64,000 nt of DNA from assembly GCA_038065395.1 (NCBI GenBank), contig JBBTRB010000004.1, positions 70,042 to 134,041 of the forward strand, written 5' to 3'. A program made the translations under genes and the position numbers. This DNA is from Patescibacteria group bacterium. GTDB taxonomy: Bacteria > Patescibacteriota > Minisyncoccia > Phycocordibacterales > PALSA-1337. The notes beneath the pieces are model-generated. The model was not told where the DNA came from. It saw nothing but the letters and a program-made list of their open reading frames with translations, and made no database searches. Below are positions 5,942-58,388 of this stretch, piece by piece (position 1 is the stretch's first letter; the number at the start of each line of letters is the position of its first letter).

Positions 5942-6376
5942 GTTGGATTTCAAATAATACACAATAGAAAAAACCCCTCGCTATACTACGCGTGGGGTTT
6001 TGAGTCTGCAGACTTGGGTCACTGGGTCCTGTCGATGCATTCAGGGAGGGCACTTTCTCCGTCTGCATAGACAAGTGCCTGGATACAACTTCCAGTAGAG
6101 TGCTCTTCATTCTGAGTGTGTTCGTTGAGCATGAATCTCGCAATACCGACGCTGTCGGGGAGCAGGGAGTCAGGAGATGTTGGTGATCCGACCGTGGTTA
6201 TACCCAGGAGAACGAATACATTCCCTGGTTTAGTCGTGCGTGGCAATCTGTTTCTCATGCGAATCCTTTCCTTGGTTGGACTTGAAATGAGCGATGTTTT
6301 CTGGAATAGTATCCCTCTTTTTATATATCAAGTCAACCGTTATTGTGTATTGTCTCGGAGTCCTTATAATGAACTC

Positions 6377-9370
6377 ATGTCACTCCCTTCCTCAACTTCT
6401 CCCGTATTCGACCGGGCATATCGAACCCTCAATGCTGCCCAAAAGAAGGCTGTAGATACGATCGAGGGTCCGGTAGTCGTGATCGCAGGTCCAGGTACTG
6501 GTAAGACGACGCTATTGACGCTACGTATCGCAAACATCTTGCGTCTGACCGATACTGCTCCTGACAGTATCCTGGCATTGACCTTCACCGAGTCGGGAGC
6601 TTTTGCGATGCGTCGCAAGCTGCTCGAGACGATAGGTCCTGCGGCGTATCGAGTGGCGATCCATACATTCCACGGGTTTGCCTCGCAGGTGATCGAACAT
6701 CACCAGGATTATTTCCCCCGTATCATCGGTTCGAAGCTCATTACCGAACCAGAACAGATACGGATCATCCAAAAGATCATCGAATCTCGAGACATAGAGA
6801 TGCTCAGACCATTCGGAGATCCAGAGTATTACGTGTCCCCAGTGCTCCGAGAGATACATATTCTCAAGAGAGAGAACATCACTCCGGCAGAGTTAGCACA
6901 GAGTATCGAGGCGGAAGCCTCTCAGGAGGTCAAGCGCTCCGCCACCGAACAGGAGAAATACGAAAAGCGAACTCTCAAAAACAAGGAGCTGGCTCTAGTG
7001 TACGCACGATACGAAAAGGCATTGGCCAAAGAGAAATATTATGACTTCGACGACATGTTGCTCGAGGTCATCCGTATCATGGAGTCACAGCCAGAATTCA
7101 AACTTATCCTACAAGAACAGTACCAGTATATCTTGGCTGATGAACATCAGGATGCCAATGCGGCTCAGAATCGCATATTAGAGCTCCTGTCGGACTTCCA
7201 TGATTCACCCAACCTTTTCATTGTTGGAGATGACAAGCAGGCGATCTATCGATTCCAAGGAGCGTCTCTCGAGAACTTCCTCTATTTTTCTCACAAATAT
7301 CCTGATGCAGTAGTCATCGATCTTGAGCACAACTATCGTTCTCACCAGGTCATACTCGATGCGTCTCATAGTGTGATCACCAACAACCCTGGTATGCCAG
7401 GTAGAACACATGCGAAGCTCATATCTCTCCAAGTCGGTGGGGGACCAGTGCATGTTTCGGAATATATGACAGCAGATGACGAACGTATCGGTGTGATGCA
7501 TGCGATCAAGAAGTTGATCGATGGTGGAGAGAAACATTCCGAAATAGCGATCCTGTATCGCGACAACAAACATTCAGGACCTCTTTCGGACATGCTCCGT
7601 TCGGAAGGTATACCTCATCGAGTCGAATCCGAAACAGATATCATGCACGAAGTCGACGTCGTCAAGATTGTTACATTATGCAAAGCGATCTTCGACCCTT
7701 CGGATGATGCGGTGTTGGCACAAGCGCTCCTCTTGCCAGAACTTGCAGTCGACCCGGCGCATGTCATGGAGATCAGTGAACGTGCCTATCGTGACAAGAA
7801 GCCTCTACATCAGTGTATCAAGTCCTCATCGCGGACAACCTATGCAGACATACACCGTGCCTACGACAAGATCGTCCGCTGGTCACGAGACGCTAACACG
7901 CTCTCATTTACCGTATTTTTGCAGAAGATTATCCAGGAAACAGGCTTCTATACATCGATAGTCGAAGCACCAGACTCACTCGACAGGATGCATGCACTCA
8001 ATGCTTTCTATGAATATATTACTGACGCCTCTCGGTCAATGAAGACCTTCCGTCTCAAAGAGTTTATTGCATATATCACCGTCATCGAGGAACACGGACT
8101 CTCTCGACGCAAAACTCATGGCGAACACACCGTAGGAGTCAGGCTGATGACGGCACATCGGGCCAAAGGTCAAGAATTCAACCATGTATTCATCGTGCAT
8201 GCAGTCGATGGTGTATGGGGGAGTCGTTCTTCTCGTAACCTCTTCCATATACCGGTGATCGAGCATGCTCGTGCCACGGGTCGTATCGATGATGAAAGGA
8301 GACTCTTCTACGTTGCGCTCACTCGTGCACGCGAGACGGTGACTATCAGTTGGGCGCAAGGAGATGGCTCAGAAGGTGCGGTCGCGAGTAGGTTCATCAC
8401 TGAGATAGACCCGAGATGTATGGTCATAGAAAAGAAAGACAAAGGCGTCGCGCATGCAACGCTTCATCGGGTTTTGGGCTCTACTCTCCATCCCTATGCA
8501 GACAAGAACACTCTCCTCAACCCAGAGTTCGTACGTTCGAAATTCCTAGCACAACCACTGTCGGTGACACATCTCAACAACTACATCGAATGTCCCTGGA
8601 GATACTTCTTCGTGAACCTGATCCGCATCCCTCAGGCCGAGAGTAAGCATCAGCTCTATGGAACAGCGATCCATGCAGTATTGCGAACATTCTTTGCGTC
8701 GTATGCACAAGGAGAAGACATGGTCCTCAAACGCATGATCGAGATCTTTCGTGGACAGATAGACATGTTGCCCTTCATGGCTGATGACCGAGAAGACTCC
8801 TTCAAAAAGGGTAAGAAGGCTCTCGAAGGCTATTACAAGACCTATTATCCACACTGGAACCGCGCGGTATTGCTCGAATATGCAGTGCGCGGCACAGAAG
8901 TCTCAGTGGACAAGGATACAGTAGTAACACTGTCGGGTAAGCTCGATAAGATCGAGATCAATACTGATGATTCGGTGACTGTCGTAGACTACAAAACCGG
9001 AAAACCCAAATCCCGTAACCATATCCAGGGTAATGTGTCCTCGGACGCTGGTGGAGAAGGGAACTATTTCCGACAACTGGCTTTCTACAAACTACTGCTC
9101 GATGGTGATACAAAATTCAGGATGAAGTATGGCGAGATCGACTTTGTGGAGCCGAATGATCGCGGTATATACAAAAAAGAAAGATTCGAGATCACGGATA
9201 CAGATATCGAGAAGGTGACCGGAGAGATCGTCTCTATGTCTCGTGCTCTGCTCAGTCTCTCTTTTGTGGGAACAACATGCGATAATAAGAAGTGTGAGTA
9301 TTGCATGCTCGGCAAGATCATATCGCGAGTCAATACAGCCCGTAATTCAACCGAATGGAAACACTTATAA
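6377..9370 (+). CDS. UvrD/PcrA-family SF1 helicase fused to a C-terminal PD-(D/E)xK (RecB/Cas4-like) nuclease with a Cys cluster
   Basis: Helicase motif I VVVIAGPGTGKTT and motif II ILADEHQD. C-terminal GKLDKIEI...VVDYKTGKP...QLAFYKLLL nuclease motifs, plus Cys residues ECPWRY...CDNKKCEYC. The start is placed at ATG 6377 (MSLPSS...) rather than 6116. Confidence 0.85.
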   Translation: MSLPSSTSPVFDRAYRTLNAAQKKAVDTIEGPVVVIAGPGTGKTTLLTLRIANILRLTDTAPDSILALTFTESGAFAMRRKLLETIGPAAYRVAIHTFHGFASQVIEHHQDYFPRIIGSKLITEPEQIRIIQKIIESRDIEMLRPFGDPEYYVSPVLREIHILKRENITPAELAQSIEAEASQEVKRSATEQEKYEKRTLKNKELALVYARYEKALAKEKYYDFDDMLLEVIRIMESQPEFKLILQEQYQYILADEHQDANAAQNRILELLSDFHDSPNLFIVGDDKQAIYRFQGASLENFLYFSHKYPDAVVIDLEHNYRSHQVILDASHSVITNNPGMPGRTHAKLISLQVGGGPVHVSEYMTADDERIGVMHAIKKLIDGGEKHSEIAILYRDNKHSGPLSDMLRSEGIPHRVESETDIMHEVDVVKIVTLCKAIFDPSDDAVLAQALLLPELAVDPAHVMEISERAYRDKKPLHQCIKSSSRTTYADIHRAYDKIVRWSRDANTLSFTVFLQKIIQETGFYTSIVEAPDSLDRMHALNAFYEYITDASRSMKTFRLKEFIAYITVIEEHGLSRRKTHGEHTVGVRLMTAHRAKGQEFNHVFIVHAVDGVWGSRSSRNLFHIPVIEHARATGRIDDERRLFYVALTRARETVTISWAQGDGSEGAVASRFITEIDPRCMVIEKKDKGVAHATLHRVLGSTLHPYADKNTLLNPEFVRSKFLAQPLSVTHLNNYIECPWRYFFVNLIRIPQAESKHQLYGTAIHAVLRTFFASYAQGEDMVLKRMIEIFRGQIDMLPFMADDREDSFKKGKKALEGYYKTYYPHWNRAVLLEYAVRGTEVSVDKDTVVTLSGKLDKIEINTDDSVTVVDYKTGKPKSRNHIQGNVSSDAGGEGNYFRQLAFYKLLLDGDTKFRMKYGEIDFVEPNDRGIYKKERFEITDTDIEKVTGEIVSMSRALLSLSFVGTTCDNKKCEYCMLGKIISRVNTARNSTEWKHL

Positions 9371-10202: not shown

Positions 10203-10285
10203 GTGGATAATGAGATGTTATGGCCTTAGTAAATGTCGACGTAGTGAGGTATTATTGTATCAGTAAATATACATATTTGCCTACC

Positions 10286-11869
10286 ATGAGTTTTTCGCTC
10301 ATATTCCACAATATTCTCTTTTTGTTGGGTGCACTGATCAGTATCGGCACCGCTTTCTTCGTCTTCTTTTCTACACAGCGCAGTCGTAGTGTTACCACGC
10401 TGACGTTCGCCTTGTCGTGCGTGGCGGTGTCCATATTCCAAGTATCACACCTTCTTGGTATCAACGCATCAGACGCCGAGACGTCTCGCATGCTCCTGAT
10501 GTTCAATCTCGCAGACATATTCATTGGTATGTTTATGACTCACTGGTTCCTCGGGTTTATAGGTAAGATCCATCAGCAACGATACGCACTCTATGCGGTA
10601 TATGCGAGTGGTCTCTCGATCTTCACGTTTTTCATGTTCTATCCTCGGATGTTTCTGATCGAGTCAGTACCCAAGCTGTATCTGCCATTTTATTATGAAC
10701 CAGGACCACTCTATGTTCTGATGCTCGGATGGTTCATGGCAGTCTCGGTGTATCATTTTTACCAACTCATTCAGGCGTATCGTCTCGAGAAAGATTCAAT
10801 ACAAAAAAACAGATACAAATACGTACTTCTGGCGATGTCATATGCGTATGCGTTCGGAACTACAGCATTCATGCTTGTATTTGATCTCCCCCTCAACCCT
10901 GCATTGTCAGCGTTATTCGGACTCTACCCGCTTCTTATTGTGTACGCGATACTGCAGTTCGAAGTGTTTGATATCCGTATTTTTGCCAAGCGCGCCTTCG
11001 TCTATGGGGTGACTATCATGATGGTGGGAGCAGCGATCACACTTACCGATTTCTTGAGTGCGTATTTCGTGACGATTCAACCAGCCGTCCCTCGAAGCTT
11101 CATTCCGATCATAGCCTCTGTGCTGTTCGGCAGTGCAGGTCTCTATGTCTGGCGCAAGACTCAAGATGCAGATTTGGCAAAATACGAGTTTATTACCATC
11201 GTGACGCACAAGTTCCGTACGCCGCTCACACGTATCAAATGGGCAACAGAAGAGATGGTTCGCACATTGCCTGATGACAAAAAAGAGATGTCGAGCATCG
11301 TAGAACAGTCGACCAGTCAGCTCTTCGAACTGACCAATATCCTGGTCAGACTTTCTGATTCTGATGCCAATACTCTCGATCAGACACGCATATCGAGCAG
11401 CGTGTCGGACCTCCTCCAGCAGCTCCAGTCAGAATATGCATCGCCGATGTTGCAGAAGCAGTTGAATTTCAATGTAAAGTATCCGGAGGGTGTGGCTTAT
11501 GCACTGATCAACCAGCAGCAGGTTCGTCTAGTCTTACAGATCTTGCTCGACAATGCGATCAGTTATTCTCCTAAGAATGGAACGATCACTCTCTCAGCCC
11601 AAGTAGTACGTGAAGATATGCAATGTATCCTCTCTGTTCAAGATCAGGGTATCGGTATCTCAAAATCAACAGCAAGACATATTTTCAACCGTTTCTATCG
11701 TGGAGATCGTGCACGTCTGGCTGATACCGAAGGTATGGGTATTGGTCTCTATATGGCACGAAAACTGATCGCAAGACAAGAAGGCAAGATCTGGGTCAAA
11801 TCTCCCGGAGAAGATCTCGGCAGTACCTTTTATGTTTCTATACCTCTCGACGGTTCAAAATATGTCTAA
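10286..11869 (+). CDS. Sensor histidine kinase with N-terminal multi-TM (7TM-like) sensor, paralog 1
   Basis: H-box HKFRTPLTRIKWATEEM. HATPase_c N/G boxes (LLDNAISYSP...DQGIGIS...GMGIGLYMARKL). Six to seven N-terminal TM helices. No adjacent response regulator. The start is placed at ATG 10286. Confidence 0.8.
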   Translation: MSFSLIFHNILFLLGALISIGTAFFVFFSTQRSRSVTTLTFALSCVAVSIFQVSHLLGINASDAETSRMLLMFNLADIFIGMFMTHWFLGFIGKIHQQRYALYAVYASGLSIFTFFMFYPRMFLIESVPKLYLPFYYEPGPLYVLMLGWFMAVSVYHFYQLIQAYRLEKDSIQKNRYKYVLLAMSYAYAFGTTAFMLVFDLPLNPALSALFGLYPLLIVYAILQFEVFDIRIFAKRAFVYGVTIMMVGAAITLTDFLSAYFVTIQPAVPRSFIPIIASVLFGSAGLYVWRKTQDADLAKYEFITIVTHKFRTPLTRIKWATEEMVRTLPDDKKEMSSIVEQSTSQLFELTNILVRLSDSDANTLDQTRISSSVSDLLQQLQSEYASPMLQKQLNFNVKYPEGVAYALINQQQVRLVLQILLDNAISYSPKNGTITLSAQVVREDMQCILSVQDQGIGISKSTARHIFNRFYRGDRARLADTEGMGIGLYMARKLIARQEGKIWVKSPGEDLGSTFYVSIPLDGSKYV

Positions 11870-14964: not shown

Positions 14965-15939
14965 ATGCGACGTATCATCGTCAAAGAAGGCCCCTTGGTA
15001 TTCCTCCGTGATGTTCTGGTCATGGAAATCATTGCTATTATCTTCTTTTTCACCCTGTCATTCTTGGGCAACTATGAGATGATTTTTAAAGGATGGGGCC
15101 TCAACCAGTTCATCCGCTACGACCTCTTTTTGGCGGGAGGTTTCTCCTTGTTCCAACTTGGATATATTATCCTCCTTTTCTTGAACTGGTACTTTTCTCG
15201 CTATGAGATCACCGAGAAAGAGATCATCCGAAGGTCAGGTATCATCTTCAGTCGTCGCAAATCCGTCAACATGCAAGATGTGGCATCCGTCGAGATATAT
15301 CAGTCACCTCTGGGGCGCATGATCCATCATGCAACGATCATACTTGAACATCAGGCAGGTAGAGTCACCAAGATCAAGAACATCTCCAACTTCGAAGAAT
15401 ACGTCCATATCATCAAACAAATGGCACGAGCTTCTTCGGGTCGTATGCCTACGGGAACGATCGAGGATCTGATCCAAGAAGGGGAAAATGCGACGGTTGA
15501 ATTCAAGGAAACATTCCGCTACGACGTACGCAAGAACGAAGTGAGCAAAGATGTCGAACATGCTGTAGCCAAGGCAATCGTCGGCTTTATGAATGCCGAT
15601 GGAGGAACACTTCTCATCGGGGTTGATGATGGTGGGGAAGTGAAGGGACTAGAAAGTGACTACAAGGCCCTCCCCAAGAAGAATCGCGATGGTCTCGAGA
15701 ATCATTTCAATATGCTGGTAAAGACGATGATAGGTCTACCATTTGCAAAATATGTTTCTGTGAAGTTCGAGAAAGTCACGGGCAAAGACGTCTGTATGGT
15801 CATGGTCCGCGAAAGTCACAAACCTGCCTATGTCCGCAACGGCGACAAGAAAGAAGAATTCTTCGTCCGTGTAGGGAACTCCACTCAGCCGTTCTCGATG
15901 AGTGAAGCCGAGGAGTATATCAAGACGCATTGGAAGTAG
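14965..15939 (+). CDS. Membrane protein fusing an N-terminal 2TM + bacterial PH (bPH_2/YdbT-like) domain to a C-terminal AlbA_2 (Schlafen-core-like) domain
   Basis: Two N-terminal TM helices. YEITEKEIIRRSGIIFSRRKSVNMQDVASVEIYQSPLGRMIHHATIIL matches bPH_2. E.ENATVEFKE...VAKAIVGFMNADGGTLLIGVDDGGEVKGL matches the AlbA_2/Schlafen box. Confidence 0.55.
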   Translation: MRRIIVKEGPLVFLRDVLVMEIIAIIFFFTLSFLGNYEMIFKGWGLNQFIRYDLFLAGGFSLFQLGYIILLFLNWYFSRYEITEKEIIRRSGIIFSRRKSVNMQDVASVEIYQSPLGRMIHHATIILEHQAGRVTKIKNISNFEEYVHIIKQMARASSGRMPTGTIEDLIQEGENATVEFKETFRYDVRKNEVSKDVEHAVAKAIVGFMNADGGTLLIGVDDGGEVKGLESDYKALPKKNRDGLENHFNMLVKTMIGLPFAKYVSVKFEKVTGKDVCMVMVRESHKPAYVRNGDKKEEFFVRVGNSTQPFSMSEAEEYIKTHWK

Positions 15940-25042: not shown

Positions 25043-26056
25043 GTGCGGTACCATAGTAGTATGTCCGTTCCACAAAGGAATATTCTCGTCTTTCTCTTTT
25101 TCTGTATGGGCTTTGCTTCGTCTGCGGTAGGGTTGAGAGCCTATGAACTCCATCGACAGGATGTTGCGTTGGCTGCATTGACAGCTGTTCAAGATGCGCG
25201 ATTGCGTCAGGCGATCGAGATAGCGAAGTCTTCTTTGTCGATACCCGCAGATCCTTTGTCGACAGATACAACTCCGGAAAAAACAGGAGAGGCTCAGGTA
25301 CCAGCAAAACCAAGAGGCTTACCTGGCGTGACTGCCCAGGCCTATATCGTCGGTAACGTAGAGACAGGGGAGATCTATCTTTCGTACAACTCTCAACAAG
25401 CACTACCAGTCGCCTCGATGTCCAAGCTCGTCACAGCATTCGTGGCTACACGAGAGTTGCCGTTGGACAAAGTCATCGAGATCGACAAAGACGCCGCTGA
25501 TGCACCACCTGACAAGAGTTTGCTCAAAGTAGGTGAACTCTTTACTGTCTCAGAACTGATGAAGCCGCTTCTTCTGAGTTCTTCCAATGTGGCCGCCGAG
25601 GCACTCGTCTCCAAGATCGACCGCAACGGCTTCTTGGAACTCATGAGTAGTTATGCCTGGGAGATCGGTATGCCGTCGACATTCTTCGCAGATCCTTCGG
25701 GAGTAAGTCCGCTCAATGTAGCCTCGGCCAAAGATCTCTTTGCTCTCGCACAATATCTCCATGGTTCACGTCCAGATATTCTGGCTCTGACTCGTGATGC
25801 ATATGTTGCAATAGCCACAACCACAGAACATGGATCTCATGAGGTCACGAGCACTCATCCGTTCGTGAAAGATCCACGGTTCATCGGGGGCAAGACGGGC
25901 AGGACTCCTCAGGCTGGTGATACGATGCTGACTATCCTCGAGTTGGGGGGTCAACCGGTTGCTATTGTTGTTCTTGGTTCGCGCTACGAAGGTCGTGCAG
26001 AAGACACTCGACTGCTCGCAGTAAAAGCAGAGGAGTTGATGCAGAAAGAAAGGTAA
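25043..26056 (+). CDS. dacA: D-alanyl-D-alanine carboxypeptidase (S11 peptidase, PBP5/6-like)
   Basis: SxxK (ASMSKLV), SxN (LLLSSSNVA) and KTG (GGKTGRT) motifs. Signal peptide. Confidence 0.8.
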   Translation: MRYHSSMSVPQRNILVFLFFCMGFASSAVGLRAYELHRQDVALAALTAVQDARLRQAIEIAKSSLSIPADPLSTDTTPEKTGEAQVPAKPRGLPGVTAQAYIVGNVETGEIYLSYNSQQALPVASMSKLVTAFVATRELPLDKVIEIDKDAADAPPDKSLLKVGELFTVSELMKPLLLSSSNVAAEALVSKIDRNGFLELMSSYAWEIGMPSTFFADPSGVSPLNVASAKDLFALAQYLHGSRPDILALTRDAYVAIATTTEHGSHEVTSTHPFVKDPRFIGGKTGRTPQAGDTMLTILELGGQPVAIVVLGSRYEGRAEDTRLLAVKAEELMQKER

Positions 26057-26067
26057 AAACATAACTA

Positions 26068-26174
26068 CTTGTAAAAATCTGTGCGGACAGGACACGGATA
26101 TTTTTCTGCTGAAAAATTCCTAGTGCTCGCGCCAGTCGCGCTCGCAATGTCCTGTCCGCACAGATTTTTACAAG
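26068..26174. repeat. Perfect 26-bp inverted repeat (cttgtaaaaatctgtgcggacaggac) flanking a 55-nt spacer
   Basis: Positions 26068-26093 are the exact reverse complement of 26149-26174. The element lies between the convergent dacA and PMM genes. Confidence 0.7.
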
Positions 26175-26196
26175 CAGTTTCGCCTTGGGACAAGCT

Positions 26197-26952
26197 CTAA
26201 GAGATAAGCCAGGTGCGGATAAGTCGTTTCGTCTCTTCGGGACCGGCCACTTGGATACAGTCAACGCCGATGGCTTTGGCAGGGTAGTCGTTGCCTCCAT
26301 GGTAGAGCGCATCACCTACGAAGAGCATGCGATGAATGGGAGTTGCGAGGTGTGTTTCGAGTTTGCGTATGCCGTAGGCCTTGTTGACTCCGCGTCTGGT
26401 GATGTCGATAGATGTGGTGCCACCGAGACGAATATCGAATTCAGGGATCTTATCTTTGAGGATAGTTACGATCTTCTCACGTTTGCTACGGTCCGAGTCC
26501 CAAGCTTCTTTGGCCTCAAGTGGTGCTTCTTGGCCGAGTGCAGAGAAGGTCACTTGTGATCCGCGGTCTTCGATGATCTCACCATATGTTTTGGTAGGCT
26601 TCTGGTATCCACCACGGCGCAAAGCGTCTTGTAGTGCGCTATGGATCTTGTCTTTCTCTGGGGTCGAGAGTTGCTCGGAATATTCTTCATGCCAGGAACC
26701 TTTCCAGGTCAGCATACGTGTACCAGATGTTGGTAACAAGAAGAGATTATCGAAGCCTTCGGCTGTATGGGGCAAGGTGCGGAGAAGTTGTGTTTCGAAC
26801 TGAGGATATCCACCACCAGAGATGATCGCGACTTTCTTCTTCTGGATAAGGCGCACCAGAAGTTCGCTCATCTCGGTATCCATGGTTGACTTGCTCGGGG
26901 CAAGCGTGCCATCGAGGTCGAATATTACAAGAGTTTTGGTTGAGAAATCCAT
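26197..26952 (-). CDS. Eukaryotic-type phosphomannomutase (HAD superfamily, PMM family)
   Basis: LVIFDLDGTLAPSKSTMDTEMSELLVRLIQKKKVAIISGGGYPQFETQL aligns closely with human PMM2 ([49 protein letters not shown]). The C-terminal FVGDALYHGGND matches FFGDKTMPGGND. Confidence 0.8.
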   Translation of the reverse strand: MDFSTKTLVIFDLDGTLAPSKSTMDTEMSELLVRLIQKKKVAIISGGGYPQFETQLLRTLPHTAEGFDNLFLLPTSGTRMLTWKGSWHEEYSEQLSTPEKDKIHSALQDALRRGGYQKPTKTYGEIIEDRGSQVTFSALGQEAPLEAKEAWDSDRSKREKIVTILKDKIPEFDIRLGGTTSIDITRRGVNKAYGIRKLETHLATPIHRMLFVGDALYHGGNDYPAKAIGVDCIQVAGPEETKRLIRTWLIS

Positions 26953-26959
26953 GATGAAG

Positions 26960-28534
26960 TTACGCAGTGATTATCGGTAATGAGAATGAGAAGGTGCTAC
27001 CGGTGCCGAGTCCCGCGGACTCCACCCATATCTTGCCTTTGTGATGCTCGATGATCTCCTTGGACATGAAAAGTCCGATACCCATACCCTCAGTGTCGGT
27101 GACTTTGGCTTTGGTGCCGCGATAGAATTTGGAGAAAAGAAGAGGGACTTCTTCTGCAGGGATGCCAATGCCTGAATCAGTGACAGAACAGACGATATGA
27201 CCAGCTTCTTTTTTCAAGGAAATACGTACTGTTCCACCTGAGGCTGTGTAGTTGATAGCATTCTCTACGAGTGTCTGGATAACAAAGCGGATACGGTGCT
27301 CATCGAACACGCTGGTGATGTTCGGTTCGATGTTCTTGCTAAGCGTAATATGTTTGGCGATGGATTCTTGGATGAGTGACTGTGCAAGTGTCTCGGCGAT
27401 CTCAGATATGGAATTCGTCTTGAGCCTATAGTCCTCAGTTCCTTTTTCTTCCTCGGATACATTAACAAGCAAGTTGGTAAGCTCTACCAGTTTGCTGTTG
27501 GCGTTCTGAATATACTCGACTTGGGTTTTGTCTTCTGCGGGTAGATTTCGATTGGAGAGATTCTCCGAAGCCCATTTGATATGAGTGAGCGGTGTACGGA
27601 ATTTGTGAGTGACGGTCGTGATGAACTCGTATTTGAGGATGTCGGTTTTGCGGAGATTCCTCCAGGCGAGTACTCCGATCGTTACAACGAGTACTGATGA
27701 TATGAGCGCGATGATCCATCCAGGGAAGTTGGGTATGAGCAATCGGATCCATTGTTGTGACGAGTTCAGCAAGATGATGAATCCGCCAACTCCGACGATC
27801 GCGAGACTGTAGAAGAATGCTTGTTTTGCGATAACTTTGATATCGAAGAGCTCATAGCGGATAGCTCCATAGGTGAATACGGTCGCGAAGACCATTGAGA
27901 ACGCCATGCCCCAGAGAGGGTCGATAGCGATATCATATACCAAGAAGTTCGGAATAAAGCCGATCGCATAGCCGATGAGCATGGTCAAAAAGAGATATGT
28001 GTAACGCTTACTGTCGATCGGAGTCGAAGCGGTCTTACGGGCACCGTAAAGAATATAGAGACAATACGGAACGACGAGGCCGTAGAGAAATATGATGCGT
28101 GAAATATTGAGTATTCCTGGCTCATAGTAGTTGGGGAAATACATTTTCGGAACAGAATCAATCAAGAAAAGCTGAGGGAAGAATGAGAAAAATATCACTG
28201 CACCTGAGGCGATTGCGTAGCTTGTATATATCAACCATTTTTTCTTGTCGGCGAGTCCGCAGAATGCCAGTACTGAATGGAGGTTGAATGCGGCAATGAA
28301 GAACAGAGATACATTGAAGGTCAGTACGATCCGGGATATGGCTGGATTGTCTATGTTGACTCCGATGACATGAGATATGGTGAATACGGTGATCGCAAGC
28401 ATCATCAGACTCCACGCAACATTGGCTGTCTTGTGTCTGCCGTTGAGGAAGGTGAAGAACGCCATAGCGAACAGGGTGATGGTCGATATGATGCAAACGA
28501 TATTATGGATGATGAGATGAAGAGAAGAGTTCAT
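26960..28534 (-). CDS. Sensor histidine kinase with N-terminal multi-TM sensor, paralog 2
   Basis: H-box HKFRTPLTHIKWASENL and HATPase_c motifs. The architecture and TM region are similar to the kinase at 10286-11869. No adjacent response regulator. Confidence 0.8.
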   Translation of the reverse strand: MNSSLHLIIHNIVCIISTITLFAMAFFTFLNGRHKTANVAWSLMMLAITVFTISHVIGVNIDNPAISRIVLTFNVSLFFIAAFNLHSVLAFCGLADKKKWLIYTSYAIASGAVIFFSFFPQLFLIDSVPKMYFPNYYEPGILNISRIIFLYGLVVPYCLYILYGARKTASTPIDSKRYTYLFLTMLIGYAIGFIPNFLVYDIAIDPLWGMAFSMVFATVFTYGAIRYELFDIKVIAKQAFFYSLAIVGVGGFIILLNSSQQWIRLLIPNFPGWIIALISSVLVVTIGVLAWRNLRKTDILKYEFITTVTHKFRTPLTHIKWASENLSNRNLPAEDKTQVEYIQNANSKLVELTNLLVNVSEEEKGTEDYRLKTNSISEIAETLAQSLIQESIAKHITLSKNIEPNITSVFDEHRIRFVIQTLVENAINYTASGGTVRISLKKEAGHIVCSVTDSGIGIPAEEVPLLFSKFYRGTKAKVTDTEGMGIGLFMSKEIIEHHKGKIWVESAGLGTGSTFSFSLPIITA

Positions 28535-28543
28535 GGTGAGAGG

Positions 28544-30424
28544 TTATGTCTTGAGCATGTCGAGCAACGTGTCCATGCGGATAGTTGCAACACCGACGAC
28601 GCTGTCTCCGCCACCATAATATATGTAGGCAGTACCACCACGGACGACCATGCCGCAAGGGAAGACGACATTGGGTACGATGCCTTTGCGCTCGTATTCT
28701 TCTTTGGGTTCAAAGAGGGGGATAGCCGTACGTGCGATCACTACAGTGGGATCTTTGAGGTCGAGCAGCACAGCTCCTACGCGATAGGTCGTGCTCCAGG
28801 ATACACCATGATAGAGCAGGAGCCAGCCGGCCTTGGTCTTGATCGGAGGACTAGCGATACCGACCTTGCCGCCATCCCACATGCCTCTGCGAGGTGCGAT
28901 GATCTCGATGCATTGGTTGATGCGTTCTTTGATGAAGTCGAGCGAAGAGACAAAGTCAGCGCAAATACTTTCATTCACTCGATGGAAGATCAGATATTTG
29001 CCATTAATCGGTTCGGGAAGGATGGCTGAGTCCTTGTTGACGACACCCGGAGGAGTGATCACCTGAGGCATAGACCAGCCGCTCCATTTCCGGGCAAGAA
29101 AATCTTTCGTGGAGATCGAACTCACGGCTACTCGTGGGGTGGTGCCATCGTAGCCGGTGTAGGTTATGTAGACGTGGTCGCCGATAATGCCAAGACGTGG
29201 ATCTTCGCAGCCATGTTTTTCGAAATCTGCACGGGGGAAATAAACGGGCTTGTCGAGGCGTTCGTCGATCGAGAATCCGTCGCTACTCGTGGCATATCCT
29301 ATGGTCGATACATTGTCTTTGGAGCAAGCGCGATAGAGGATATGAGTTTTGTTGCCGAGGTCGATCGCCGCTGGGTTGATCGTGCCACCTTCTTCCCAGA
29401 GCATGCCAGGGCGCGGGGTGATGATCGGGTTGCCGGGAAACCGTTTGATATGAGCGTGAGGTTTGTCGATGATGCTCTCGAGAAGATTGTCGAGTGGGAT
29501 GGTCGCTATGGCACAATGGGTATCAGCGGCGCCATAGTGTATCTCGAGGTTCTCTCCGCGAATGAGTGCCCCTGACGGGAAGGTGATATGAGGTACGAGG
29601 CCGGTATGTTCGTAGTAGGTATCTGGCACCATGAAAGGTCCTTTGGTACGGCCGATGATCTTGCGAGGATTCTTGAGGTCAAGAAGGACAACTTCGATAC
29701 CAAAAGCCACATCAGGACGGTCGTAGCGTTGCATATGAGAGTATACCACCAGCCAACCTTTGTCGGTCTTGAGCGGTGGTGCACCGAGCTCGAGATGGTC
29801 ACTGTCGAGTCTGCGGATATGGAGCTTGTGACCGTCGATGTTCTTGTACCATTCATCCCAATATTCCTTGGACCAAAGCTGTTCTAGAGTATCGAACTCG
29901 GCATAACAGATCTCGGCAGGGCGATGGTCAGGGTTGACTGTCAGGAGTGCTGCGTATTTGCCTCCGATCTTGTTCGGAAAAAGCGCCATAGCTTTTGCAT
30001 TGAAAGGGGTGACAAGATGTTTCTCGTCGACCGTTTTGAGATCTTTGGAAAGAGCAACAGCTACTTTGACGTTGTCAGCAGAGAAAGGGAATCCGCCAAG
30101 TCCAGTATAGAAAATATAATATGTCCCCTCGATCTTGGTGATACGAGGATCTTCACATCCGTAGCGGTCATAGTCAGTGCTCGGTTCGATGAGCACTGCT
30201 CGGTCGGTAAAATTGATACCGTCAGTGGATACAGCGTGGCCGATGACTGACATGCGGATATGAGGCTCCTTGAGGAGTTGTGGTTCTGACATCGCACGAT
30301 AGACGAGATGGGTTTTCTTGCCCTGCACGATCGGGCACCCATTGAACGCCGCCGCCGCCTCCCATGGGTGACTTTTGAGAGGAGAGAGGATTGGGTTGTG
30401 TTCTGAACGGTTGAGAGTGAACAT
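28544..30424 (-). CDS. Tandem-duplicated GH130-family glycoside phosphorylase (two beta-mannoside phosphorylase-like domains)
   Basis: Two GH130/DUF377-like halves (HNPILSP...HLVYRAMS... and NPIITPRPG...HILYRACS...), each with repeated beta-propeller blades. The single-domain paralog 30435-31553 is conserved Asp-rich. Confidence 0.7.
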   Translation of the reverse strand: MFTLNRSEHNPILSPLKSHPWEAAAAFNGCPIVQGKKTHLVYRAMSEPQLLKEPHIRMSVIGHAVSTDGINFTDRAVLIEPSTDYDRYGCEDPRITKIEGTYYIFYTGLGGFPFSADNVKVAVALSKDLKTVDEKHLVTPFNAKAMALFPNKIGGKYAALLTVNPDHRPAEICYAEFDTLEQLWSKEYWDEWYKNIDGHKLHIRRLDSDHLELGAPPLKTDKGWLVVYSHMQRYDRPDVAFGIEVVLLDLKNPRKIIGRTKGPFMVPDTYYEHTGLVPHITFPSGALIRGENLEIHYGAADTHCAIATIPLDNLLESIIDKPHAHIKRFPGNPIITPRPGMLWEEGGTINPAAIDLGNKTHILYRACSKDNVSTIGYATSSDGFSIDERLDKPVYFPRADFEKHGCEDPRLGIIGDHVYITYTGYDGTTPRVAVSSISTKDFLARKWSGWSMPQVITPPGVVNKDSAILPEPINGKYLIFHRVNESICADFVSSLDFIKERINQCIEIIAPRRGMWDGGKVGIASPPIKTKAGWLLLYHGVSWSTTYRVGAVLLDLKDPTVVIARTAIPLFEPKEEYERKGIVPNVVFPCGMVVRGGTAYIYYGGGDSVVGVATIRMDTLLDMLKT

Positions 30425-30434
30425 GAAATTAAAG

Positions 30435-31553
30435 TTATACTTTGCCGTATTTCATCAACCACGTTAATAACGCATCGACATTCGTCTGGGCTACACAGGC
30501 ATGCTTGTCACCACCGCCATAGTAGACGGTCAGTGTGCCATCCTTGATCAGAGCTCCGCAGGCATAGACGACTCCTGGTTTCCAGTCATTCTCATAATGT
30601 GCGCATGGTGAGAGGATCGGTGCAGGAGAGCGATAGAGTATCTTGGTCGGATCTTCGAGATCGAGGATCATCGCACCGACGTTGTAGCCACCTTTGTATA
30701 TGGCATGATAGAGAACGAGCCAGCCTTTGTCGGTTCGCAGTGGTGCTGCACCGGCACCCTTCATGACTTTGTCCCAATGATCCTCTCGTCCAGGGTCATG
30801 CGCGCCGTATCCTCCATGATCGCGAGAACTCTGGATCGGCGGTACTGCATCGAGACTGTCGACATAGGCCACCAGCACTTTGGGTGCCACACTATGAAGG
30901 ATGGCGTATTTGCCACGGATCTTCTCGGGGAAGATCACCCAGTTTTTCGCACGAGCCTTCGCTGGGGAGATGAGTGCAGTGCGTCGCCAGTTCCAACGAC
31001 GCTTCTTGATATTCTCGAGAGAGATAGACGTCAGAGCGATACGCATATCATTCCAGCCTTCGAAAGCGGTGTATGTCATATAGACTTTGTCACCGATTCT
31101 TGTGGCGCGAGGATCTTCTGCGCCGCCCCAGCCACCACCAGACGGGTTGAGCGCACTATGTCTCCTGTGTTCGTCGGTCACCGAAGTCGGCTCCGGCATG
31201 CCGTATCCTGGTAGGGGTACATAGACAGGGTAAGGGGACAGTTCGTCGATGTGTGTGCCATCAGAAGAGAAGGCGTGACAAATGCGTGATATGCCATCAG
31301 ACCCGATAGCACGATAGAAGAGATGCACGCCCCCATCGTCATCCTCGATAGCTGTAGGGTTGAAGGTTCCTTGAGATTCCCATTCGCGATGGCCTTGTGG
31401 ACTGATGACAGGATTGGCATGATGACGTTCGAGCTCGTGCTTCCAGTACGTCGCTGATCCGCGCTTCCTCGAGCTCCACCAGGTATATATGATTGCACCA
31501 ATGATGGCGATGCTCGCAAATATGATGACAAATGTATTGAGGGAATAGTCCAT
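30435..31553 (-). CDS. GH130-family glycoside phosphorylase with N-terminal TM anchor
   Basis: N-terminal TM helix, then ANPVISP...GTFNPTAIEDDDGGVHLFYRAIG, typical of the GH130 beta-propeller. Confidence 0.7.
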   Translation of the reverse strand: MDYSLNTFVIIFASIAIIGAIIYTWWSSRKRGSATYWKHELERHHANPVISPQGHREWESQGTFNPTAIEDDDGGVHLFYRAIGSDGISRICHAFSSDGTHIDELSPYPVYVPLPGYGMPEPTSVTDEHRRHSALNPSGGGWGGAEDPRATRIGDKVYMTYTAFEGWNDMRIALTSISLENIKKRRWNWRRTALISPAKARAKNWVIFPEKIRGKYAILHSVAPKVLVAYVDSLDAVPPIQSSRDHGGYGAHDPGREDHWDKVMKGAGAAPLRTDKGWLVLYHAIYKGGYNVGAMILDLEDPTKILYRSPAPILSPCAHYENDWKPGVVYACGALIKDGTLTVYYGGGDKHACVAQTNVDALLTWLMKYGKV

Positions 31554-31571
31554 GGGTACGTTACATATATA

Positions 31572-31928
31572 TTATGACGATGCGGTTCGCCCATACCTGT
31601 CTTCGAGGCGAGTGATATCTTTTTCATCAAAGGTGCCAAATGATATTTCGAGAAATACGACTGGAGTATCACCAGCCTGGATGCGATGCGCTGTTTCTCG
31701 GGGTACGAAATAGTCACCAGTTACGATCGGACGTGATGTGTCGCCGATAATGACCGTGCCAGTACCAGAGAGAATGTGCCAGAATTCATCGCGGTTATGG
31801 TGAGTCTGAAGACTAAAAGCCTCACCTGGGTTTACAGTGATGATCTTGATAGTCGAAGGTACGTTACACGTATATTCTATGAAGTCTCCCCACGGTTTTT
31901 TTTCTTGAAATGGTTTCGGAGGTTGCAT
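31572..31928 (-). CDS. Cupin-type mannose-6-phosphate isomerase-like protein (COG0662-like)
   Basis: PWG.F.....IK.ITV.PG...SLQ.H..R.E.W.ILSG.G.V..GD......GDYF.VP....HRI.AGDTP..FLEI fits the small PMI cupin pattern. Confidence 0.6.
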   Translation of the reverse strand: MQPPKPFQEKKPWGDFIEYTCNVPSTIKIITVNPGEAFSLQTHHNRDEFWHILSGTGTVIIGDTSRPIVTGDYFVPRETAHRIQAGDTPVVFLEISFGTFDEKDITRLEDRYGRTASS

Positions 31929-32939
31929 GGAGGCAGTGCCTCAATTATATGATGGAAAGGGGTTCTTTTGCTTGTGCATAACTATTAAAGATGAATCTAA
32001 TATATAATTAGAGAAGGAATGATAATTTAGATAACTATCTTAGTGAGATAAATGAATCCTTAAAAGGGATCGTCACTTTTCTATTTTTGTTGGCGGCGGT
32101 CGTATTTGTAGCAGTACGGCATTTTTGGTAAAAATATAGCGTATTATTTAATATGAAGAATATGTACAATATTTCAAAAGGGCAATTAGTAACAGTGTGG
32201 GTTTTTGCGGTATTTATATTTTTCTGGGCAATGAATGAAAATGAATACTCTTCTAATTCATTCTACGCATTCTTTGGATTAACCATTCCTTTTGTGGTTA
32301 TTTTTTACACTGTTGGTTGGAGGAATAATAAAAACAAAAAATAGATAGAGGTGTTGCATTTTTTGTTGTAGTTAAATGGGCATTTCGGGCAGTTTTCAAA
32401 ACGCCCTTGAGATATTACATGGGTGTGTATATTTATGATTGACAATCAAGAAAATGCGCGCGACAATAGTCTTGTCATTAGGAAAGTTTACCATCGAAGT
32501 AGACGGACTTAATGAGCCCCGCAGGGGTTCTTTATAAGTATAAGTCATATTATTATGGCAAATATTTTGAAGACTCCTTCTCTTAATAACCAGATCATAT
32601 AGCGAGACAGTTGTATCAAAGCAAGGCAACTGGAAGAAGTGTGATCAAGTTTCAGGCTCAAGGGGTTAAGTGCACTTAGTGTACAAAATGTTATGTTTGG
32701 CATGAGTTAGTTATGGATATGTAAAGGACCTGCCAGGTCTTCCTACCTTGTGAACACTTTGATGTTTATGTATGGTGAGGACGATCCAATATTAAGGGAG
32801 CTGGACATAAAGGCTAAAACACACCATGGCTGGTGTGTTTTTGTTTGATGTTGGTTTTTATAAAAAGGGGTGTACAATCCCTGCTCGAGCAGTAATATTA
32901 TATCACGTAATTAATTTTGTTATCCACAGAAAAATATTT
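31929..32939. other. AT-rich, essentially ORF-free 1-kb region (only a 63-aa TM ORF at 32153-32344)
   Basis: Marked drop in GC relative to the flanks. No ORF above 76 aa. Contains the zupT terminator at 32819-32845. Confidence 0.5.
32819..32845 (-). terminator. Rho-independent terminator of the ZIP transporter gene (acacacca-loop-tggtgtgt + T-run)
   Basis: Read on the minus strand it is acacaccagccatggtgtgtTTTT, about 95 nt after the zupT stop. Confidence 0.6.
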
Positions 32940-36542: not shown

Positions 36543-36938
36543 TTATTGACTGATTGTGCGTGTGGCGCGTTGCGGAGCGAATTCATACCACGTCTCCTGC
36601 GGAGAAGGAGATGTCTCGGTCTTACGATGTCCTCGTAGTGGTGTGTACGGAGGAATCAGTCCGTGTTCGATACCCGATCGAACCGCTAAGACTCGATTCA
36701 TGTAAGTCTGCCCAGTGAGTCTCTTAAGTTTACTGAATATATTGACGAGATGAGTGTTCGTTGTTCTGATGCTGATACCATGTCTACTTGCAATGTCTTT
36801 ATCACACAGTCCTTCTGAGAGTGACTCGAGAATTTCCGTTTCCCGAGGAGTCAACTGAGTAGTTGATGTTAATGCGAGGTTAATTTTTCCCGTTACGTTC
36901 ATAAGGTACAGATATCTAATCCCAAAAGCATTATACAT
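36543..36938 (-). CDS. LuxR/GerE-type helix-turn-helix transcriptional regulator (stand-alone)
   Basis: LTPRETEILESLSEGLCDKDIASRHGISIRTTNTHLVNIFSKL is a LuxR-type HTH. Confidence 0.6.
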   Translation of the reverse strand: MYNAFGIRYLYLMNVTGKINLALTSTTQLTPRETEILESLSEGLCDKDIASRHGISIRTTNTHLVNIFSKLKRLTGQTYMNRVLAVRSGIEHGLIPPYTPLRGHRKTETSPSPQETWYEFAPQRATRTISQ

Positions 36939-50457: not shown

Positions 50458-51471
50458 ATGAAGTTTTTCTCACCGAAACTAGGGATAGATCTCGGTACCG
50501 CCAATACGCTTGTTTTCGCCCCTGGTAGAGGCATCATCCTCAATGAACCTTCGGTCGTGGCAGTGTCAGAAGTCGACAAGAAAGTCTTGGCTGTTGGCAA
50601 TGAAGCCAAGGAGATGGTAGGCCGAACGCCCGATAGTATCGTGGCATATCGTCCGATCAAAGACGGCGTGATCGCAGACTACCGTGTGACCGAAGCCATG
50701 CTCCGTTATTTCATCGACAAAGCTCTGGGACGTTTTTCTATATTCAAACCCGAGGTGATGGTTTCGGTACCTGCGGGTATAACCTCAACCGAACGTCGTG
50801 CAGTCGTAGAGGCAGCTCTTCGTGCTGGTGCGCGCAATGCCTACGTGGTGAAAGAGCCGATCCTTGCGGCGATTGGTGCCGGTATCCCGATCCAAGAACC
50901 GCGTGGTCATATGATCATCGACATTGGTGGCGGTACGACCGATGTGGCAGTGATCTCACTCGGTGGTATCGTTGCATCCAACTCGGTCAAATGTGCTGGC
51001 GACAAGATGGACAGCGCGATCGCCGACTATGTCAAGAAAACGTTCAACCTGGCGATCGGTGACCATATGGCCGAGCTCATCAAGATCACCATCGGCTCTG
51101 CTATCCCACTCGAACAAGAGCTCTCGATGATCGTCAAAGGCCGCGATTTCATTTCAGGGATGCCTCGTTCGACTGAGATCAAGACCAACGAGATCGTCAA
51201 AGCCCTTGCTACGCCTCTACGTGACATGATCAAAGCCATCAAGGACGTTCTCCAAGACACTCCGCCCGAGCTTGCAGCTGATATCATCGACCAAGGCATC
51301 ACCATGACTGGTGGCTCCTCGATGCTCCGCAACTTGCCAGAACTTGTCTTCCGTCGTACAGGTGTGAAGGCTCAACTTGCCGAAGATGCACTCCTCTGTG
51401 TCGTGAAGGGGACGGGTATAGCGCTCGAACATCTGGATGTATACAAGAAGAGTATTATTTCGAAGAGGTAG
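50458..51471 (+). CDS. mreB: Rod shape-determining actin homolog MreB (paralog 1, stand-alone)
   Basis: IGIDLGTANTLVF phosphate-1 motif and MIIDIGGGTTDVAVISLGG phosphate-2 motif. Full length. Confidence 0.9.
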   Translation: MKFFSPKLGIDLGTANTLVFAPGRGIILNEPSVVAVSEVDKKVLAVGNEAKEMVGRTPDSIVAYRPIKDGVIADYRVTEAMLRYFIDKALGRFSIFKPEVMVSVPAGITSTERRAVVEAALRAGARNAYVVKEPILAAIGAGIPIQEPRGHMIIDIGGGTTDVAVISLGGIVASNSVKCAGDKMDSAIADYVKKTFNLAIGDHMAELIKITIGSAIPLEQELSMIVKGRDFISGMPRSTEIKTNEIVKALATPLRDMIKAIKDVLQDTPPELAADIIDQGITMTGGSSMLRNLPELVFRRTGVKAQLAEDALLCVVKGTGIALEHLDVYKKSIISKR

Positions 51472-57323: not shown

Positions 57324-58388
57324 ATGGATTTCAAAGAGCGTATTCAACACTTTCTCAATCGTTTCTCCAATGAGATCGGTATCGATCTCGGTACTGCCAA
57401 CACGCTCGTCTATGTGCGTGGCAAGGGTATCGTCGTTGACGAACCTTCGGTAGTAGCAGTGAACCAGAAGACCGGACAGGTAGTGGCGATCGGCAAAGCC
57501 GCAAAAGAGATGCTCGGTCGCACCCCGCAACATATCGTAGCTATTCGTCCGCTCGTTGACGGTGTGATATCTGACTTCGAAGTCACCGAAGAAATGCTCG
57601 CCTATCTCATGAAGCGCGCAGGGGAGTTCATGCCTCGCAAACTCCTCGGCCCACGAGTGGTCGTCGGTATTCCGTCGGGTGTCACCAATGTCGAGGCGCG
57701 TGCTGTCCGTGATGCAACCAAGAACGCAGGTGCACGCGAAGTACATATCGTAGAACAGCCGATGGCAGGAGCGATCGGTATTCGTCTGCCGATCCACGAA
57801 CCAGTCGGAAGTCTGATCATCGACATTGGTGGTGGTACGACTGATATTGCGGTGATATCACTCGGCGGCATCGTCCGCTCCAAGAGTCTGCGTATCGCTG
57901 GCGACAAACTCAACAACGACATCATTTCTTATATTCGCAATGAATTCAAAATCCTGATCGGTGAGACGACTGCAGAACAGGTCAAGCTTGCCGTCGGTGC
58001 AGTCATCCCTGGAGATCCACTCGAGACAACGATCCGTGGTCGAGATCTCATCACCGGTCTCCCTCGTGAAGTTGTGATCACTGACTCTGACATCCGTGAG
58101 GCGATGAATCATTCCATTTCTATACTTCTCGATGCTACGCGCGAAGTCCTCGAGACAACACCACCAGAGATCTTGGCAGACATCATGCGTCGGGGTCTCT
58201 ACATGGTCGGTGGAGGAGCGTTGATCAAAGGCTTGGCAGAACTCATACATGATACCTTCAGGCTCCCTGTGACAGTGGCAGATGAACCATTGACCGCTAT
58301 TGCACGTGGTGCCGGTATCATCCTCGAAGATCTGGAGAAATATCGCAGTGTCCTTATCCACGAAGATGATGTATCTCATACCTCATAA
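57324..58388 (+). CDS. mreB: Rod shape-determining protein MreB (paralog 2, heading mreCD-pbp2)
   Basis: IGIDLGTANTLVYV and LIIDIGGGTTDIAVISLGG motifs. Confidence 0.85.
   Translation: MDFKERIQHFLNRFSNEIGIDLGTANTLVYVRGKGIVVDEPSVVAVNQKTGQVVAIGKAAKEMLGRTPQHIVAIRPLVDGVISDFEVTEEMLAYLMKRAGEFMPRKLLGPRVVVGIPSGVTNVEARAVRDATKNAGAREVHIVEQPMAGAIGIRLPIHEPVGSLIIDIGGGTTDIAVISLGGIVRSKSLRIAGDKLNNDIISYIRNEFKILIGETTAEQVKLAVGAVIPGDPLETTIRGRDLITGLPREVVITDSDIREAMNHSISILLDATREVLETTPPEILADIMRRGLYMVGGGALIKGLAELIHDTFRLPVTVADEPLTAIARGAGIILEDLEKYRSVLIHEDDVSHTS

Follow-up and report, generated by a model that had tools for sequence, protein, structure and literature searches.

A conserved Patescibacteria cassette with three GH130 modules and a predicted route between beta-1,2-mannosides and fructose-6-phosphate

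What would a bacterium from a lineage of tiny genomes do with three sugar-active sites of one family, encoded side by side? The question is raised by positions 26197 to 31928 of a 64-kb window (the whole stretch of DNA analysed, 64,000 nucleotides of contig JBBTRB010000004.1) from a Patescibacteria group bacterium. Open reading frame (ORF) calling returned five adjacent minus-strand genes there, at exactly the coordinates that a first-pass annotation had given (Table 1). In order, they encode a phosphomannose isomerase (PMI)-type cupin, a membrane-anchored GH130 protein, a tandem GH130-GH130 fusion (modules D1 and D2), a sensor histidine kinase and a hexose-phosphate mutase of the HAD superfamily, with intergenic gaps of 18, 10, 9 and 7 bp.

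The first-pass annotation had read this locus as an ATP-sparing route from beta-mannosides to fructose-6-phosphate (Fru-6-P). The pathway logic stands and is matched by conserved co-location of the genes, but only one of the three GH130 modules keeps a phosphorylase signature. Four of the five genes form a cassette that is conserved across Paceibacteria, and the kinase is not part of it. On balance, we think it probable that the cassette interconverts cytoplasmic beta-1,2-mannosides and Fru-6-P via mannose-1-phosphate (Man-1-P) and mannose-6-phosphate (Man-6-P) without ATP, with D2 as the phosphorylase and the other two GH130 sites using other chemistry. Every family in the cassette is already known; the literature that we searched contained no account of the four-gene cassette, of a division of labour among three such active sites, or of the exchange of a membrane anchor for a polybasic tail described below.

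GH130 fold, linkage signature and phosphate sites

Both GH130 proteins proposed in the first-pass annotation, a tandem-domain fusion and a protein anchored by one N-terminal helix, were confirmed. The 372-residue anchored protein matched PF04041 with 121 bits, and its best matches in the PDB were 9FJ8 and 7FIP. The 626-residue fusion matched PF04041 in two stretches (341 bits) and the beta-1,2-mannobiose phosphorylase model NF052550 along its whole length with 441 bits, slightly below the equivalog cut-off of 450. An AlphaFold2 model of the fusion (pLDDT 90.2) contained two beta-propellers with the GH130 fold, superposing on 7FIP, 9FJ8 and 9GPH with Foldseek TM-scores of 0.86–0.90. Membership in the GT108 family was not supported: phmmer gave zero matches to 6Q4X and 6Q50, and Foldseek reached E values of only 4e-9 to 4e-8 at 15–16% identity.

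The closest solved relatives of all three modules were the Thermoanaerobacter beta-1,2-mannobiose and 1,2-beta-oligomannan phosphorylases (7FIP, 9FJ8), followed by Listeria Lin0857 and Uhgb_MS. Against the PDB, the fusion scored 227–231 bits with beta-1,2 enzymes, whereas the beta-1,4 enzymes 3WAS, 5AY9, 5AYD and 4UDG were its weakest GH130 matches at 43–84 bits. Automated annotation by the Joint Genome Institute labels some fusion orthologues 'beta-1,2-mannobiose phosphorylase / 1,2-beta-oligomannan phosphorylase'.

Linkage specificity in GH130 can be read from the residue before the catalytic Asp and that at UhgbMP position 150, where Tyr/Arg indicates beta-1,4, Glu/Lys beta-1,2 and Glu/Arg beta-1,3 linkages, and the Arg168/His231 pair marks phosphorolysis (PMC7660257, PMC4599007). 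We mapped these positions by rebuilding two Thermoanaerobacter sequences from printed alignments and aligning them with the three modules, which reproduced the published numbering of N28, E97 and D98. Residue counts then covered 29 orthologues of the fusion and 26 of the anchored enzyme. The sugar-binding and catalytic positions proved invariant in all three modules, listed here in the order D1, D2 and anchored enzyme: the -1 subsite Asn and Asp (N28 and D301; N350 and D607; N65 and D349), the catalytic proton-donor Asp that corresponds to UhgbMP D104 and Teth514_1788 D92 (D92; D408; D147), the +1 Arg (R43; R365; R81) and the Glu/Lys pair (E91/K144; E407/K464; E146/K203). The D1 residues were also invariant in a set of 31 sequences. 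None of the three modules has the Tyr/Arg pair of beta-1,4 enzymes (GH130_1/2), and the predicted linkage of all three is beta-1,2, as in GH130 enzymes of the GH130_3/4/6 type.

At the phosphate site the modules part ways. The first-pass annotation had staked its reading on both the catalytic Asp and the phosphate-binding residues being in place; the Asp is present in all three modules, but the phosphate Arg/His pair occurs only in D2. We placed the phosphate residues by spacing, given that the Arg comes 18 residues after the Lys in UhgbMP, in Uhgb_MS, in Teth514_1788 and in all three modules, and the second basic residue through an alignment with Uhgb_MS, in which R242 precedes V243. D2 is canonical, with the switch Arg R482, the second basic residue K/R520 and the His H539 each kept in 29/29 orthologues. 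The anchored enzyme has Ser, Gly, Asn or Thr at position 221, the equivalent of Teth514_1788 R160 and UhgbMP R168 (Arg in 0/26), with no conserved basic residue nearby and a short loop after it; R/K265 and H283 are kept. D1 has T/S162 in place of the switch Arg (Arg in 0/29), H/Q210 for the second basic residue and S/A229 for the His, together with an invariant E212 and a conserved D/E209 beside the lost second Arg. Thus the counterparts of the UhgbMP R168/H231 pair and of Uhgb_MS R242 are complete in D2 only. An 'HRP' motif in the D1 of the window, which HMMER aligned to the HRP of Lin0857 and Uhgb_MS, was considered as a displaced phosphate Arg and rejected, being unconserved in the orthologues.

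Published work gives these patterns a likely meaning. GH130 enzymes without the basic phosphate residues are hydrolases (PMC4599007). The R202A exchange in Uhgb_MS lowers phosphorylase activity 16-fold. Where the L2 loop is short and phosphate is contacted at only three points, the enzyme is predicted to be a transferase whose phosphorylase activity is weak or absent (PMC12814180). In GT108, an Arg-to-His exchange at the equivalent position abolishes phosphorylase activity (PMC10913872). By comparison with these enzymes, D2 is a predicted phosphorylase. Since their phosphate sites are partly or wholly lost, D1 and the anchored enzyme are likely non-phosphorolytic: D1 appears hydrolase-like, given the loss of all three basic residues and the gain of an invariant Glu, and the anchored enzyme appears transferase-like or a weak phosphorylase, given its short L2 loop and lost switch Arg.

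D1 can be compared with the Bacteroides GH130_3 beta-1,2-mannosidases BT3780 and BACOVA_03624, which share with it the Asp, Glu and Lys and the lack of basic phosphate residues; by alignment coordinates, D1 E212 falls on E268 of BT3780 (PMC4599007). The Bacteroides enzymes, however, are secreted and carry a pair of Glu residues (E227/E268, two candidate bases in BT3780), whereas D1 lacks both a signal peptide and a conserved residue in the place of E227, is joined to a phosphorylase and resembles phosphorylases more closely in sequence. D1 also contains a helical insertion of its own at the position of loop L2 (fusion residues 180–199), with invariant W184, W189 and W192; loop L2 governs donor access in GH130.

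D1 is not a decaying duplicate. In a neighbour-joining tree, D1, D2 and the anchored enzyme formed three old, separately conserved clades, and stand-alone D1-type GH130 genes occur in other Patescibacteria (loci L035–L038; for example L035 5992–7029), in which Thr replaces the Arg, Ser replaces the His and the Glu lies in an ELG motif. Their neighbours are unrelated housekeeping genes. In L036, two adjoining GH130 genes (5986–7026 and 7048–8109), one D1-type and one with the canonical Arg and His, form an unfused counterpart of D1–D2. The separate clade and the stand-alone enzymes argue that D1 is a functional enzyme type.

The fusion has zero hydrophobic segments and no signal peptide, and is homologous from residue 1 to cytoplasmic Thermoanaerobacter enzymes. 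In the anchored GH130, the N-terminus is neutral or acidic, and the single helix after it is followed by a basic stretch (SSRKRGS), a pattern shared by close orthologues. By the positive-inside rule, this basic C-terminal flank would place the catalytic domain in the cytoplasm, and the enzyme is probably cytoplasmic and held at the membrane. In a distant clade (L022–L033; for example L023 4778–5995), the helix is exchanged for a Lys/Arg-rich tail of 50–80 residues, a swap which suggests that association with the membrane, or with a polyanion, is kept by another device.

Mutase, cupin and conservation of the cassette

The mutase had been described as a phosphomannomutase (PMM) of the eukaryotic type. 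The family assignment stands, with 47.3 bits to PF03332 (cut-off 22.4) and 72.7 bits to TIGR01484 (HAD-IIB), but the closest solved relative is bacterial: the HAD-type alpha-phosphoglucomutase of Lactococcus lactis (PgmH/APGM, 4BND) was the best PDB match (1.2e-40, 143 bits, 36.7% identity over 240 residues), compared with 42–65 bits for PMMs and 47 bits for human PMM2. Every PDB match was a PMM-family mutase. The N-terminal alignment to PMM2 that the first-pass annotation found striking reflects a general HAD motif. Like PgmH/APGM, itself a bacterial member of the eukaryotic-type PMM family, the mutase has the HAD-IIB cap and the GGND motif, and both share Gln/Lys where PMM2 has R134/R141; its DxDGT (nucleophile) and GDxxxxGGND motifs were conserved in 17 orthologues. 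The lactococcal enzyme acts on glucose phosphates, while the mutase described here sits in a mannose-phosphate cassette. Its sugar specificity is not readable from sequence, and it is gene context that favours action on Man-1-P and Man-6-P.

The cupin groups with isomerase-type cupins, as had been proposed, scoring 64.3 bits to PF01050 MannoseP_isomer (cut-off 23.6) against 41.9 to Cupin_2. It matches the last 107 positions (361–467) of TIGR01479 (GMP_PMI), and thus corresponds end to end to the C-terminal PMI domain of type-II enzymes such as AlgA, XanB and ManC; unlike these, it is a stand-alone protein of 118 residues without a nucleotidyltransferase domain. The metal-ligand positions Q41, H43, E48 and H81 and a C-terminal D-I...D-Y-R motif were invariant in 18 orthologues. 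The predicted reaction is the interconversion of Man-6-P and Fru-6-P. A PDB search with the cupin returned no close solved or characterised stand-alone relative.

To place the cassette among its relatives, we compared 34 non-redundant related loci (2 from look-ups of encoding contigs and 32 from species-representative genomes), 26 of which carry the tandem GH130 gene. The order cupin, anchored GH130, tandem GH130, HAD mutase was found in 15 of these 26; the GH130 pair was adjacent in nearly all of them, and the mutase followed the fusion directly in 17 loci. The fusion itself is identical to a protein from a Patescibacteria metagenome-assembled genome and is encoded on a Hainich groundwater contig. 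Its best 120 cluster representatives, mostly from Parcubacteria/Paceibacteria, were all 626–672 residues long with 69–81% identity, as would suit a core function; clustering at 50% reduced the full-length type to about a dozen representatives. The fusion family is therefore abundant yet tightly conserved within its lineage. Many proteins of about 600–650 residues in the 50% library match the fusion through the D2 half only.

This abundance bears on how exceptional the locus is. The tandem fusion and the PMM-family mutase had both been called unusual, and both are in fact very common in Patescibacteria; for the mutase, 7997 of 8000 scored candidates reached E <= 1e-5. A 2018 count in CAZy listed only four GH130-GH130 proteins (PMC7660257), and the only related remark in the literature that we searched is a brief one on two GH130 genes without signal peptides in a Microgenomates genome (PMC7143001).

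Several loci depart from the common arrangement. The cupin falls into two ORFs in L005 (6464–6827) and L006, and in L018 (6001–7936) the fusion is split, with a 3-kb insertion between it and the anchored GH130; the split genes in these three loci may be frameshifts, decay or assembly errors. In L032 (1164–3011), a 615-residue protein replaces the anchored GH130, its C-terminal half being a canonical GH130 (HR, YH) that follows about 270 other residues. Efflux genes and a ribosome hibernation factor recur beside the GH130 pair in the distant clade L022–L033, and a sugar importer was absent among the recurrent neighbours there. In L022 (2882–3319), L023, L024, L025 and L031, a sugar-phosphate nucleotidyltransferase resembling HldC/RfaE domain II (145–172 residues; TIGR02199 74.8 bits, below the cut-off) lies directly 5' of the pair, with all three genes on one strand; in most of these five loci the cupin and the mutase do not adjoin the pair. 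The nucleotidyltransferase could provide a donor in the form of a nucleotide sugar, and the window contains no copy of it.

A beta-1,2-mannoside cycle and its rivals

We infer the working of the cassette, including the direction of flux, from these families, residue patterns, gene orders and the predicted fold. D2 would reversibly phosphorolyse beta-1,2-mannosides to alpha-mannose-1-phosphate, the PgmH-like HAD mutase would convert Man-1-P to Man-6-P, and the type-II PMI cupin would convert Man-6-P to Fru-6-P. D1 and the tethered GH130 would bind the same beta-1,2-mannoside and most likely act on it by chemistry other than phosphorolysis.

This arrangement has two instructive precedents. The first is the pair Teth514_1788 and Teth514_1789 of Thermoanaerobacter sp. 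X-514 (GH130_6; 9FJ8, 7FIP), which agree with the three modules in the catalytic Asp, the -1 subsite and the Glu/Lys pair, share the full phosphate site with D2, and are likewise encoded by two GH130 genes side by side in a mannose-phosphate context. The Thermoanaerobacter enzymes, however, are separate, single-domain and both canonical, and their cluster includes an ABC importer, a GH5 enzyme, a Man-1-P guanylyltransferase and a GT4 enzyme (PMC4264767); here, D1 and D2 are fused, two of the three sites lack phosphate residues, one enzyme is tethered, and the GH130 genes are accompanied by those for a PMI cupin and a HAD mutase. The second precedent is the mannogen cycle of Leishmania, which also uses paralogous five-bladed propellers that act on beta-1,2-mannan and differ at the phosphate-binding Arg; these are the GT108 proteins MTP1-7, comprising strict transferases and dual transferase/phosphorylases, of which some synthesise the polymer and others phosphorolyse it (PMC10913872, PMC12814180). 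In contrast to the Leishmania enzymes, the proteins described here are not GT108 members, and no GDP-mannose supply was found in the window.

The Leishmania parallel leads us to a more specific proposal, which we hold tentatively and would call possible rather than probable: that Paceibacteria synthesise a beta-1,2-oligomannan as their own equivalent of mannogen, and recycle it, through three specialised GH130 paralogues. In such a cycle, the tethered enzyme without the switch Arg would build or prime the chain, D1 would trim it and D2 would recover Man-1-P; coupled to Fru-6-P by the cupin and the mutase, the cycle could buffer carbon, energy and phosphate with no ATP spent. An endogenous oligomannan is, in our view, more likely than an imported glycan. 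It is favoured by the strong conservation of the cassette in minimal genomes, by the presence of three differentiated paralogues, one of them membrane-held, in a logic like that of the Leishmania mannogen enzymes, by the lack of an importer in the window and the conserved flanks, and by the rarity of beta-1,2-mannosides in nature.

A number of points weigh against both the general route and the oligomannan cycle. We know of no beta-1,2-mannan reported from these bacteria, nor, to our knowledge, has mannogen been shown in any bacterium. The nearest characterised relative of the mutase, 4BND, is a glucose-phosphate mutase. Not all PF01050 domains are active as isomerases, and E. coli ManC/CpsB has been reported to lack this activity. 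In the distant clade L022–L033, the cupin and the mutase lie mostly apart from the GH130 pair. A GDP-mannose pyrophosphorylase was not found in the window, which leaves the nucleotide-sugar donor of a transferase unaccounted for. The match between D1 E212 and BT3780 E268 is one of alignment coordinates rather than residue by residue. The Arg itself is an imperfect guide, its absence being no proof against phosphorolysis and its presence no guarantee of it (PMC10913872). Finally, all tested beta-1,2 GH130 phosphorylases have weak transferase activity with GDP-mannose, and the authors of that work caution that GH130 transferase activity may lack a physiological role (PMC12814180).

The strongest rival is purely catabolic. 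The cell would import beta-1,2-mannosides, such as those of glycans on fungal or host-cell surfaces; D1 and the anchored enzyme would trim or debranch them, D2 would phosphorolyse them, and the mutase and the cupin would feed glycolysis. The GH130 family and residue evidence fits this scheme equally, a life on other cells is assumed for these bacteria, and the Thermoanaerobacter and Bacteroides relatives have been interpreted as salvage or catabolic enzymes (PMC4264767, PMC4599007). Yet neither the 64-kb window nor the conserved flanks of the cassette showed a sugar importer, a binding protein or a secreted glycosidase, in contrast to the Thermoanaerobacter cluster with its importer and GH5. 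The natural rarity of the substrate also sits badly with a core gene so well conserved in groundwater bacteria, and three differentiated cytoplasmic sites, one of them tethered, exceed the needs of simple disaccharide catabolism. We regard catabolic scavenging as rather unlikely.

More doubtful still is a role in envelope glycan synthesis, in which the tethered GH130 would be a beta-1,2-mannosyltransferase of the inner membrane face with an acceptor that is lipid-linked or in the membrane, the cupin and the mutase would make Man-1-P from Fru-6-P, and the tandem enzyme would edit chain length. The anchor or polybasic tail would indeed place the enzyme at the inner membrane face, and the missing switch Arg with the short L2 loop matches the transferase-type prediction (PMC12814180). 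Envelope genes flank several of the loci (a DD-carboxypeptidase and a pilin in several, BacA or PAP2 in some), and the HldC-like nucleotidyltransferase lies directly upstream in five distant loci. Those flanking genes, however, may simply mirror conserved gene order; a flippase, a polyprenol-phosphate glycosyltransferase and a GDP-mannose pyrophosphorylase were not found in the cassette, and D2, a fully canonical phosphorylase by its residues, is hard to fit into a purely biosynthetic role.

The proposal of the first-pass annotation, ATP-sparing scavenging of host or plant beta-1,4-mannan, Man-Glc or N-glycan Man-GlcNAc, seems very improbable: GH130 does include such enzymes and the steps after Man-1-P would be identical, but the Glu/Lys pair in place of Tyr/Arg in all three modules (PMC7660257) and the beta-1,2 enzymes as closest relatives, with the beta-1,4 enzymes the most distant, argue against a plant mannan or N-glycan substrate, and neither an epimerase, a mannanase nor a transporter was present among the window ORFs near the cassette.

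Kinase, setting and wider meaning

The fifth gene of the locus has a different history. The kinase, with HisKA and HATPase_c domains, is shared at this position by L007 and L008 alone, the closest two relatives (64% identity), and its absence from the other syntenic loci identifies it as a lineage-specific insertion rather than a part of the cassette. This recent insertion may subject the operon to control by a signal, in this lineage alone. The kinase had been described as seven-transmembrane and without a response regulator. No receiver-domain protein was found among the approximately 55 window ORFs checked; seven segments were not established, a crude hydropathy count giving about 8–9 hydrophobic segments in the first 290 residues. 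The kinase core resembles PhoR/PnpS at the generic HisKA level only (160 bits against a cut-off of 400), and we draw no conclusion from it. A multi-pass paralogue of 549 residues with 36% identity over its full length lies at 10220–11869 on the plus strand, and a 131-residue protein consisting of a GerE domain alone is encoded at 36543–36938.

Table 1 Features of the GH130 locus, with positions counted in the 64-kb window
Feature	Position	Strand	Basis and reading
Stand-alone type-II phosphomannose-isomerase cupin, 118 aa	31572..31928	-	PF01050, TIGR01479; predicted Fru-6-P <-> Man-6-P
Membrane-tethered GH130, 372 aa	30435..31553	-	PF04041; beta-1,2 signature, without phosphate switch Arg
N-terminal transmembrane anchor of the 372-aa GH130, residues ~4-24	31482..31544	-	Single hydrophobic segment
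Tandem GH130-GH130 fusion, 626 aa	28544..30424	-	PF04041 twice
Fusion module D1 (N-terminal), residues 1-~318	29471..30424	-	Catalytic Asp and sugar subsites kept, phosphate site lost
Fusion module D2 (C-terminal), residues ~326-626	28544..29449	-	Canonical beta-1,2-mannoside phosphorylase signature
Multi-pass membrane sensor histidine kinase, 524 aa	26960..28534	-	HisKA and HATPase_c
HAD-IIB hexose-phosphate mutase, PMM family, PgmH/APGM-like, 251 aa	26197..26952	-	PF03332, TIGR01484; predicted Man-1-P <-> Man-6-P
Upstream intergenic region, likely operon promoter (weak)	31929..32150	-	TATAAT hexamer and GAGG ribosome-binding site just 5' of the cupin ATG

The promoter assignment in Table 1 is weak, because consensus scans for promoters and terminators over 25900–32500 found no more sites than in shuffled sequence. 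Elsewhere the window is typical housekeeping DNA, with rpoC, dnaG, rpoD, aminoacyl-tRNA synthetases, a type IV pilus set, MreB/MreC/PBP2 and RNase R; across its 64 kb there were zero tRNA genes and zero matches to Rfam families. Cumulative GC skew climbs near-monotonically over positions 1–64000, so the window probably lies inside one replichore. A MazF/PemK-type toxin gene (2048–2437) sits between the end of rpoC and dnaG, and the protein encoded at 14965–15939 carries both a bacterial PH domain (bPH_2) and an AlbA_2 domain of the Schlafen type, an uncommon combination with a possible link to defence. Two MreB paralogues (50458–51471 and 57324–58388), MreC (58300–59178) and a PBP2-type transpeptidase (59458–61197) make up a full rod-shape set in an ultra-small bacterium.

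The physiology of the Patescibacteria (candidate phyla radiation) is largely obscure, and a cassette kept this conserved in such tiny genomes is probably important to them. If the cassette served mannoside catabolism only, it would be an ordinary pathway in an unusual host. If instead the proposed beta-1,2-mannan cycle is correct, these organisms would gain their first proposed storage or buffer polymer, and a virulence pathway known from a parasite would have a parallel in bacteria. For the GH130 family, the three paralogues form a natural series, one with a full phosphate site, one with the Arg lost, and one with all basic residues lost and a Glu gained, and this series could reveal how GH130 enzymes switch among phosphorylase, transferase and hydrolase chemistry.

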